DNA of 64,000 bases from Escherichia coli (GTDB lineage: Bacteria > Pseudomonadota > Gammaproteobacteria > Enterobacterales > Enterobacteriaceae), in the NCBI RefSeq assembly GCF_009931435.1, contig NZ_CP043414.1; one strand, written 5' to 3'. The notes under the pieces are model-generated. The model saw only the letters and a program-made list of their open reading frames with translations, made no database searches and was not told the origin of the DNA. Position numbers and translations under genes: made by a program. This document shows, in pieces, positions 38,121-38,320 of this stretch (position 1 is the stretch's first letter; each line of letters opens with the position of its first letter).

Positions 38121-38320
38121 TGCCGGATGCGGCGTAAACGCCTTATCCGGCCTACAGTTCGATGCGATTCGTAGGTCAGATAAGATACGTCAGCATCGCA
38201 TCCGACAATAAGTGCCGGATGCGGCGTAAACGCCTTATCCGGCCTACGGTTCGATGCGATTCGTAGGTCGGATAAGATGCGTCAGCATCGCATCCGACAA
38301 TAAGTGCCGGATGCGACCTA
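38121..38320. repeat. Tandemly duplicated 92-bp REP/BIME unit (2 copies plus a partial third)
   Basis: The unit beginning gccggatgcggcgtaaacgccttatccggcctac recurs at 38121, 38213 and partially at 38305, with few mismatches. Confidence 0.8.

Follow-up and report, generated by a model that had tools for sequence, protein, structure and literature searches.

The 232-bp gap between the convergent genes ybhC and ybhJ in the stretch of Escherichia coli DNA analysed here (the window, 64,000 nucleotides) is occupied nearly entirely by a tandem repeat, which raises the questions of what kind of element it is, how its copy number varies between strains, and what it might do to the transcripts that enter it from its two sides. 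The original prediction, made from the sequence alone, described two full copies and a partial third copy of a 92-bp REP-containing unit, standing in tandem with only a few mismatches, and held that the copy number of such BIME arrays varies between strains and can affect the mRNA stability of the flanking genes.

Structure and classification of the repeat array

The convergent arrangement of ybhC on the + strand and ybhJ on the - strand, and the identity of the two genes, were established from the MG1655 annotation and from BLAST matches in annotated E. coli genomes. Tandem Repeats Finder reported one array at 38121-38315, with a period of 92, 2.1 copies, 97% matches, 0 indels and a score of 369, and a repeat search gave two full copies that are 97% identical (units 1 and 2 in Table 1), followed by the start of a third at 38305-38320 (TGCCGGATGCGACCTA), with 88% identity to the first 16 nt of the unit. 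The two full copies differ at only three positions, 38156, 38178 and 38187, with A in copy 1 and G in copy 2 at each of them, and the chance of at least 89 matching positions between adjacent 92-mers is about 1e-49 per position. A two-unit gap of the same 232 bp is present in the complete genomes 2020CK-00188, Z0117EC0005 and R32_14_1F, at 1-4 substitutions from the window, and this recurrence in several independent complete genomes rules out an assembly artefact. Hence, the tandem 92-bp unit with its partial third copy, the small number of differences between the copies (three G/A changes) and the location between convergent ybhC and ybhJ were all borne out by the repeat searches, the open reading frames, BLAST and the MG1655 annotation.

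Each unit is composed, in this order, of a y-type REP (GCCGGATGCGGCGTAAACGCCTTATCCGGCCTAC), a 15-nt linker, an inverted second REP and the 5-nt linker ATAAG, with the second REP of both units following the consensus GTAGGTC(A/G)GATAAGAT(A/G)CGTCAGCATCGCATCCGACA. The 3' UTR of ybhC runs into the array, and the 3' UTR of ybhJ enters it from the opposite side.

Table 1. Coordinates of the genes and of the repeat components at the ybhC-ybhJ gap of the window.
Feature	Positions	Strand	Basis and remarks
ybhC CDS	36822-38105	+	427 aa; stop TAA 38103-38105; ORF list, BLAST to annotated ybhC in 5,346 genomes, MG1655 b0772
Leader AAGCGATTAACTTTT, 15 nt, from ybhC stop to unit 1	38106-38120		length constant in all BIME-bearing alleles (allele dissection)
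Unit 1, 92 bp	38121-38212		Tandem Repeats Finder, repeat search
y-type REP, unit 1	38122-38155	- (GTAG-first); + strand reads GCCGGATGCGGCGTAAACGCCTTATCCGGCCTAC	pattern match, fold; Rfam naRNA4 y-half alignment, made on the identical y REP of unit 2
Short linker AGTTCGATGCGATTC, 15 nt, between the CTAC and GTAG ends of the two REPs	38156-38170		without IHF consensus
z2-like REP, unit 1, GTAGGTCAGATAAGATACGTCAGCATCGCATCCGACA	38171-38207	+	two G-to-A changes; pattern, Rfam alignment, fold
Linker ATAAG, 5 nt, from z2 to next y REP	38208-38212		sequence, allele dissection
Unit 2, 92 bp	38213-38304		y REP 38214-38247, linker 38248-38262, z2-like REP 38263-38299, ATAAG 38300-38304; repeat search
Rfam RF02564 (naRNA4) match	38174-38244	-	y REP of unit 2, CUUAU, z2-like REP of unit 1; 71.9 bits
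Truncated terminal palindromic unit TGCCGGATGCGACCTAC, 17 nt	38305-38321		first 11 nt of y REP joined to its CCTAC end; closes the array in all Escherichia alleles examined
Tail ATTCACATGGCGCTTT, 16 nt, abutting the ybhJ stop codon	38322-38337		alignment of filled and empty alleles; weak fold, -5.4 kcal/mol
ybhJ ORF	38338-40623	-	761 aa from first GTG (753 aa in the K-12 annotation); stop 38338-38340; ORF list, BLAST, MG1655 annotation

A hallmark of REPs is the GTAG tetranucleotide, and a stem mismatch is needed for the binding of TnpA(REP) (Ton-Hoang 2012, PMC3333891). Both palindromes of the unit are imperfect, form a stem-loop and fall within the 30-40 nt of REPs, with 34 nt for the y and 37 nt for the z2-like palindrome. 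GTAG stands 5' of the palindrome foot on the + strand at 38171-38174 and 38263-38266, and CTAC, which is GTAG on the - strand, is found at 38152-38155 and 38244-38247, and a stem mismatch or internal loop is present in the folds of both the y and the z2-like REPs. The array is extragenic, lying wholly between the stop codons of ybhC and ybhJ, and elements of this kind are present in many copies per genome, since a 1.2-kb query spanning the array matched by BLAST a median of at least 26 places per E. coli genome and a near-identical y REP occurs elsewhere in the window, at 16528.

In the classification of Bachellier/Gilson, as summarised by Ton-Hoang et al. 2012 (PMC3333891), BIME-1 elements have a long linker with an IHF site, while BIME-2 elements consist of inverted y and z2 REPs joined by a short linker and are present in tandem copies, whose number varies between strains. 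The ybhC-ybhJ array shares with the BIME-2 family a y REP with an inverted long z-type REP, a short linker of 15 nt without an IHF site (no match to WATCAANNNNTTR was found in the 15-nt linkers, even allowing one mismatch), tandem repetition and a strain-variable copy number, with 1-3 units in E. coli and 5 in E. albertii. The y REP has the canonical form. In the second palindrome the length and the inner stem are those of z2, and in the alignment to naRNA4 it falls on the z2 half of the model, its outer-stem changes being compensated, with a G in place of the T of z REPs; however, its outer stem is GTCGGAT/ATCCGAC rather than GCCTGAT/ATCAGGC, and because of this difference 'z2-like' or 'atypical BIME' may be a stricter label than BIME-2. 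The linkers are also locus-specific, unlike those of the family.

The naRNA4 model (Rfam RF02564), which corresponds to the y-linker-z2 unit of REP325 (Qian 2015), matched the array on the - strand with 71.9 bits versus a gathering score of 59.5, with both hairpins aligned and the linker 6 nt shorter, and the remaining naRNA4 matches inside the array fall below threshold. The assignment to REP/BIME elements in the original prediction was thus supported by the REP pattern matches as well as by this alignment. The K-12 element downstream of ybhC has been catalogued as REP72a-d (PMC10100675, Table 2), a name that is taken here from that paper, as the NC_000913 record lists no repeat_region features, and the four full palindromes observed in the MG1655 gap agree with it. 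Taken together, the array is very probably a BIME-2-type REP cluster, orthologous to K-12 REP72a-d, in the shared 3' region of convergent ybhC and ybhJ. REP/BIME arrays and their variable copy number are ordinary and already documented, as is REP72 itself, and hence the discovery value is small; for annotation, the repeat should be labelled as a REP cluster and not as a novel repeat or an sRNA gene.

Among the nearest known systems, K-12 REP72a-d has the same locus and flanking genes, the 15-nt leader, two y+z2 units and a 33-nt tail with the truncated unit, in a gap of 233 bp as compared to 232 bp in the window. However, unit 2 of K-12 REP72 is 93 nt long with a degenerate y REP (GCTGCGAAAATGCC...TCTGG) and differs from unit 1 at 6 positions and by an indel, whereas in the window both units are 92 nt, the y REPs are intact and identical and there are 3 mismatches in total. 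The z2 loop is GTCA in the window and GCAA in K-12 REP72. Judged by these sequence comparisons, the near-identical two-unit form of the window is rare as a haplotype and differs from the K-12 form, which is common and has a degenerate second unit, and the window-type allele is represented by 18 records with at least 99% identity over a 632-bp query. REP325 (RF02564, yjdM-yjdN) also has tandem y/z2 pairs in a 3' UTR, corresponding to the model that the array matches above threshold, and by analogy with REP325 the array is probably a terminator and stabiliser, too. REP325 differs in that its six units measure 77 bp, are built with a 12-nt 'l' linker and separate spacers, and stand between tandem genes, whereas the ybhC-ybhJ array has two units between convergent genes and, on that side, a linker of 5 nt.

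Allelic variation and age of the array in Escherichia

The BIME-bearing alleles have a constant frame, in which the 15-nt leader is followed by n units, each 91-94 nt long, and by a 33-nt tail starting with the truncated unit. Alleles with one unit have a gap of 140 bp (strain B, O157:H7, PCN033 and MFDS1022581), those with two units have a gap of 233 bp in the K-12 type (MG1655 and SE11) or of 232 bp in the window type (the window, 2020CK-00188, Z0117EC0005 and R32_14_1F), and those with three units have a gap of 324-326 bp (N96, of the window type, and OkiPb01711, of the K-12 type). Alleles without BIME have a gap of 68-70 bp (042 and N4220121; positions 707-774 of the extracted locus of 042 and 707-776 of the second locus). 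Among 5,426 complete E. coli genomes, about 52% carry two units, about 37% one and about 1% three, shares that rest on two evenly spaced samples of the ranked matches, in which 51 of the 98 genomes with the locus had two units, about 36 had one, 1 had three and 9 had none, and 9.7% carry none, which is an exact count of 527 of the 5,426 genomes. Two of the three-unit alleles were checked by sequence. A 60-nt junction query designed for alleles with at least two units was confounded, as one-unit BLAST pieces were joined to 100% coverage and other z2-s-y loci were matched. A 50-nt linker-centred query matched 6,195 places in 4,008 genomes, with 1-4 places per genome, and therefore the doublet is confined to the ybhC-ybhJ locus and the place count tracks the unit number. 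The maximum of 4 places suggests a candidate four-unit allele in E. coli.

The comparison of copy number across E. coli genomes that the original prediction called for thus reveals variation, with 0, 1, 2 or 3 units, and 5 in E. albertii. Its 'tandem duplication' is correct in that the two-unit state is real, but this state is not private to the window genome, since two units constitute the commonest E. coli allele. Similarly, the 'partial third' copy is present, but is better described as a truncated palindromic unit, conserved at the array end in all the Escherichia species examined, and not as a recent copy in decay.

In a survey of the genus, using one genome per species, the BIME architecture was also found in five other Escherichia lineages, namely E. 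albertii NBRC 107761 with five 93-nt units (extracted locus 1466-1978), E. whittamii with one unit, Escherichia sp. E1V33 with two units, and E69 and SCPM-O-B-8794, which are divergent lineages labelled E. coli, with one unit each. Thus, the array and its truncated terminal unit predate the species split, and the ybhC-ybhJ array is old and common to the genus Escherichia. All the outgroups carry the BIME, and the BIME-free alleles sit on flanks that are more than 4% different from one another. The degenerate unit 2 of K-12 and unit 2 of E1V33 have diagnostic changes in common, and hence the K-12 duplication is old. The three-unit alleles are built as u1-u2-u3 on the window-type haplotype in N96 and as u1-u2-u2, with a perfect u2 copy, on the K-12 type in OkiPb01711, and their occurrence on both haplotype families implies that expansion has been recurrent and independent. 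Within every array, the z2 loop variant is identical in all units, being GTCA, GCAA or GCCA, and this uniformity points to homogenisation of the units within arrays, that is, concerted evolution.

Unequal recombination and replication slippage are well-known fates of direct repeats of 92 bp. The number of units would change by unequal homologous recombination or by replication slippage between these repeats, and a seed for the first duplication could lie in the truncated unit with its 11-16-nt repeat. This route predicts perfect copies such as that of u2 in OkiPb01711. A published alternative is the strand exchange mediated by TnpA(REP), which has been shown in vitro (Ton-Hoang 2012, PMC3333891).

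Concerning the window pair itself, it is quite possible, if slightly less likely than not, that its near-identity is due to a recent lineage-private duplication and not to the homogenisation of an old pair by gene conversion. Consistent with a recent event, the window units differ at 3 positions, as compared to 6 mismatches and an indel in K-12, and the same flanking haplotype also occurs with one unit (MFDS1022581), this unit having the sequence of unit 2 in the Z0117, R32 and N96 alleles. However, unit 1 carries 3-4 derived G-to-A changes common to five genomes, and hence the window pair is not brand new. Furthermore, z2 loops are uniform even in arrays with an old degenerate unit 2 (K-12 and E1V33), which argues for concerted evolution.

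RNA folding and the ends of the ybhC and ybhJ transcripts

When folded as RNA, the REP palindromes have energies of -19 to -21 kcal/mol on either strand, except for the weaker z2-like REP of unit 1. The y REP hairpin of unit 1 reaches about -21 kcal/mol on either strand, whereas the z2-like hairpin of this unit has -7.0 kcal/mol on the + strand versus -15.2 kcal/mol on the - strand, weakened due to the two G-to-A changes. Larger structures can also form, since the y half of a unit can pair with its z2 half to give a long hairpin (-40 to -54 kcal/mol), the z2/y junctions form separate hairpins, whose arms measure 11-13 bp, and the truncated terminal unit forms a hairpin of 12-13 bp with the preceding z2 arm. 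The fold of the whole gap is much more stable than those of shuffled controls, with z-scores of -9.2 and -10.5 on the two strands. A 2x2 internal loop, with AA opposite GC, is located at the boundary of the outer and inner stems in the y REPs on the - strand and in the z2-like REPs on the + strand, while in the opposite orientation of the REP folds a G-U pair narrows this loop to 1x1.

Base pairing is retained at about 97% in each of three alternative schemes, in which the REPs fold locally, the z2 register is shifted or y and z2 pair in the long hairpin, and covariation did not distinguish between them, the units varying too little to reveal selection for any one fold. Two compensatory changes were observed, in E. 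albertii units 1 and 3 at alignment columns 69/79 and 70/78; they are compensatory solely in the shifted register of the z2 inner stem, and this number was reached by 5 of 500 shuffles. Strand-specific selection on the RNA, suggested by G-to-A changes in the z2 of unit 1 that keep G-U pairs only in the ybhJ-sense RNA, was considered and rejected, since one-sided changes are distributed about evenly between the strands across all units.

A scan in and around the gap found no sigma-70-like promoter. Likewise, no strong intrinsic terminator was detected in the window gap, with the scan of 37900-38600 giving a single weak site of 6 pairs, which lies within a REP on the - strand, and T-runs are absent directly after the REP hairpins, which hence do not have the form of intrinsic (Rho-independent) terminators. 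In this respect the array differs from the BIME-free allele, which has two strong terminators, an 11-pair hairpin followed by a T-run on the - strand, just past the ybhJ side, and a 10-pair hairpin followed by a T-run on the + strand, serving ybhC. The array fills exactly the position that these paired intrinsic terminators between convergent genes hold in 9.7% of E. coli genomes. The 16-nt tail of the array looks like a degenerate remnant of the terminator, hairpin and T-run, that the BIME-free allele carries, and, as BIME-bearing alleles would keep just this remnant of the second terminator, the array sits where the other allele has two terminators.

Hairpins of about -20 kcal/mol, transcribed from either side, would be expected to block 3'-to-5' exonucleases and may function as leaky, partly Rho-dependent terminators on the ybhC and ybhJ mRNAs, and as such would replace the intrinsic terminators of the BIME-free allele. 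By analogy, the array would most likely act on both transcripts in two ways, as a barrier to exonucleases and as a leaky terminator. This dual role is proposed because of functional evidence from other REP loci. Thus, REP325 stabilises its upstream mRNA and is a partly Rho-dependent terminator, convergent gene pairs with REP have higher expression, and about 40% of REPs between convergent genes fall in predicted bidirectional terminators, with no genome-wide difference in half-life for REP-flanked genes and with effects that are context-dependent (Harris 2026). Furthermore, ATP depletion stabilises REP-bearing transcripts (PMC10100675). The effect on mRNA stability that the original prediction attached to such arrays may extend from these other loci to ybhC and ybhJ (Harris 2026; PMC10100675). 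For these two genes, the supplement of Harris 2026 has differential-expression rows only, with nothing on REP72, and one table in it places them among genes of low to moderate expression. A bolder reading, of fairly low probability, is that within the allelic series of this gap the array has taken over the job of the two classical terminators. Its repeated expansion on separate haplotypes and the homogenisation of its z2 loops may conceivably also reflect selection on unit number and not neutral slippage.

A selfish or neutral nature of the array is possible but doubtful, in which case it would be a REPIN-like element kept and now and then amplified by TnpA-REP/RAYT without a selected effect on ybhC/ybhJ expression, with copy number changing as the RAYT cuts at C|T sites of the inverted REPs and linkers and transfers the strands. 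REPINs are REP doublets forming hairpins that are mobilised by a single-copy Y1 transposase, the RAYT, and the unit resembles them as an inverted REP doublet able to form one long hairpin, with GTAG tags and stem mismatches. However, its doublet has its own linker at one locus per genome, and its amplification is tandem and not dispersed. No RAYT gene is present within the 64-kb window, and the RAYT gene of K-12 (yafM) lies far from the ybhC-ybhJ region. In vitro, TnpA(REP) cuts and recombines BIMEs and is able to join several REPs together, which its authors proposed as a basis for copy-number variation (Ton-Hoang 2012, PMC3333891), and the array contains the CC|TAC sites, the GTAG-tagged hairpins and the stem mismatch needed for binding. 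The lack of a general half-life effect (Harris 2026) and the 9.7% of E. coli genomes without the element are also consistent with this explanation. On the other hand, the perfect u2-u2 copy in OkiPb01711 is expected from plain unequal recombination or slippage, and the exact boundaries of the array, namely the 15-nt leader and the truncated unit, are kept across Escherichia species with 8-10% divergent flanks. The confinement of the linker-centred core to the ybhC-ybhJ locus, with its 1-4 places per genome, means that this unit is not spreading. Moreover, both intrinsic terminators are lost in BIME-bearing alleles, and hence something else must end the ybhC and ybhJ transcripts.

It is improbable that the array primarily represents a DNA gyrase binding and cleavage site relieving positive supercoils between convergent transcription units, even though BIME-2 elements are said, from work by Espeli and Boccard in 1997, to be gyrase targets in vivo, and the placement between convergent genes and the lack of an IHF site, unlike in BIME-1, fit such a role. 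Gyrase cleavage sites are also among the proposed REP roles (Qian 2015, introduction). However, the low to moderate expression of ybhC and ybhJ in one table and the terminator-only alleles in 527 genomes argue against it. Least of all is the locus likely to be a gene for a naRNA4-like nucleoid-associated sRNA that binds HU, bridges DNA cruciforms and condenses the chromosome, since RF02564, although matched above its gathering score on both hairpins and derived from the REP325 unit described as naRNA4 (Qian 2015), effectively models a y/z2 REP pair, so that the match shows REP identity and not nucleoid function, while the linker is shorter at ybhC-ybhJ, no promoter-like site was found in or near the array, and REP325/naRNA4 itself had no effect on nucleoid volume and gave no REP-REP contacts (Harris 2026).

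For the favoured dual role in exonuclease protection and leaky termination, the ybhC-ybhJ gap offers a natural allelic series, with twin terminators or with 1, 2, 3 or 5 units on otherwise orthologous flanks. This series can be used for testing the effects of REP arrays on the transcripts of convergent genes, including a dose-dependent bidirectional termination or stabilisation.

Other features of the locus and of the window

The region 36103-52000 of the window is unusually divergent, with 96.1% identity to MG1655 over 10 kb, and the best match over 12 kb among 5,426 complete E. coli genomes is 98.4% identical to the window. The 3' end of ybhC is highly polymorphic in E. coli generally, with 95-96% identity between ordinary strains. 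In some strains mobile DNA adjoins the ybhC-ybhJ locus. In 2020CK-00188 a tyrosine integrase gene is located just upstream of ybhC (locus 1-88), where the match to the window stops, and in KCJ3K291 (extracted locus 3341-6447) ybhJ is truncated about 100 nt from its 3' end, beside a phage tail tape measure gene.

Two further REP elements were identified in the window. The element at 16528-16626 contains a y REP, a 35-nt linker with an IHF-like site with one mismatch (ATTCAATATATTG at 16574) and a short z1-type REP (GTAGGCCTGATAAGCATAGCGCATCAGGCA), and from its sequence looks like a BIME-1. A single z2-type REP (TGCCTGATGCGACGCTGCGCGTCTTATCAGGCCTAC) is found at 57339-57369, downstream of a T-run.

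Among structured RNAs, the ybhI-ybhJ gap upstream of ybhJ contains at 40653-40776 (+) a match to Rfam V_AS5, a Vibrio antisense RNA, which covers the full model length but is sub-threshold (47.3 bits versus a gathering score of 96, E = 2.8e-8), and is overlapped by a weak isrH match. Seven tRNA genes, interleaved with four above-threshold RtT RNA matches, are located at 62296-63451 (-), and a molybdenum cofactor riboswitch (RF01055, 103 bits) is located at 22470-22614 (-).
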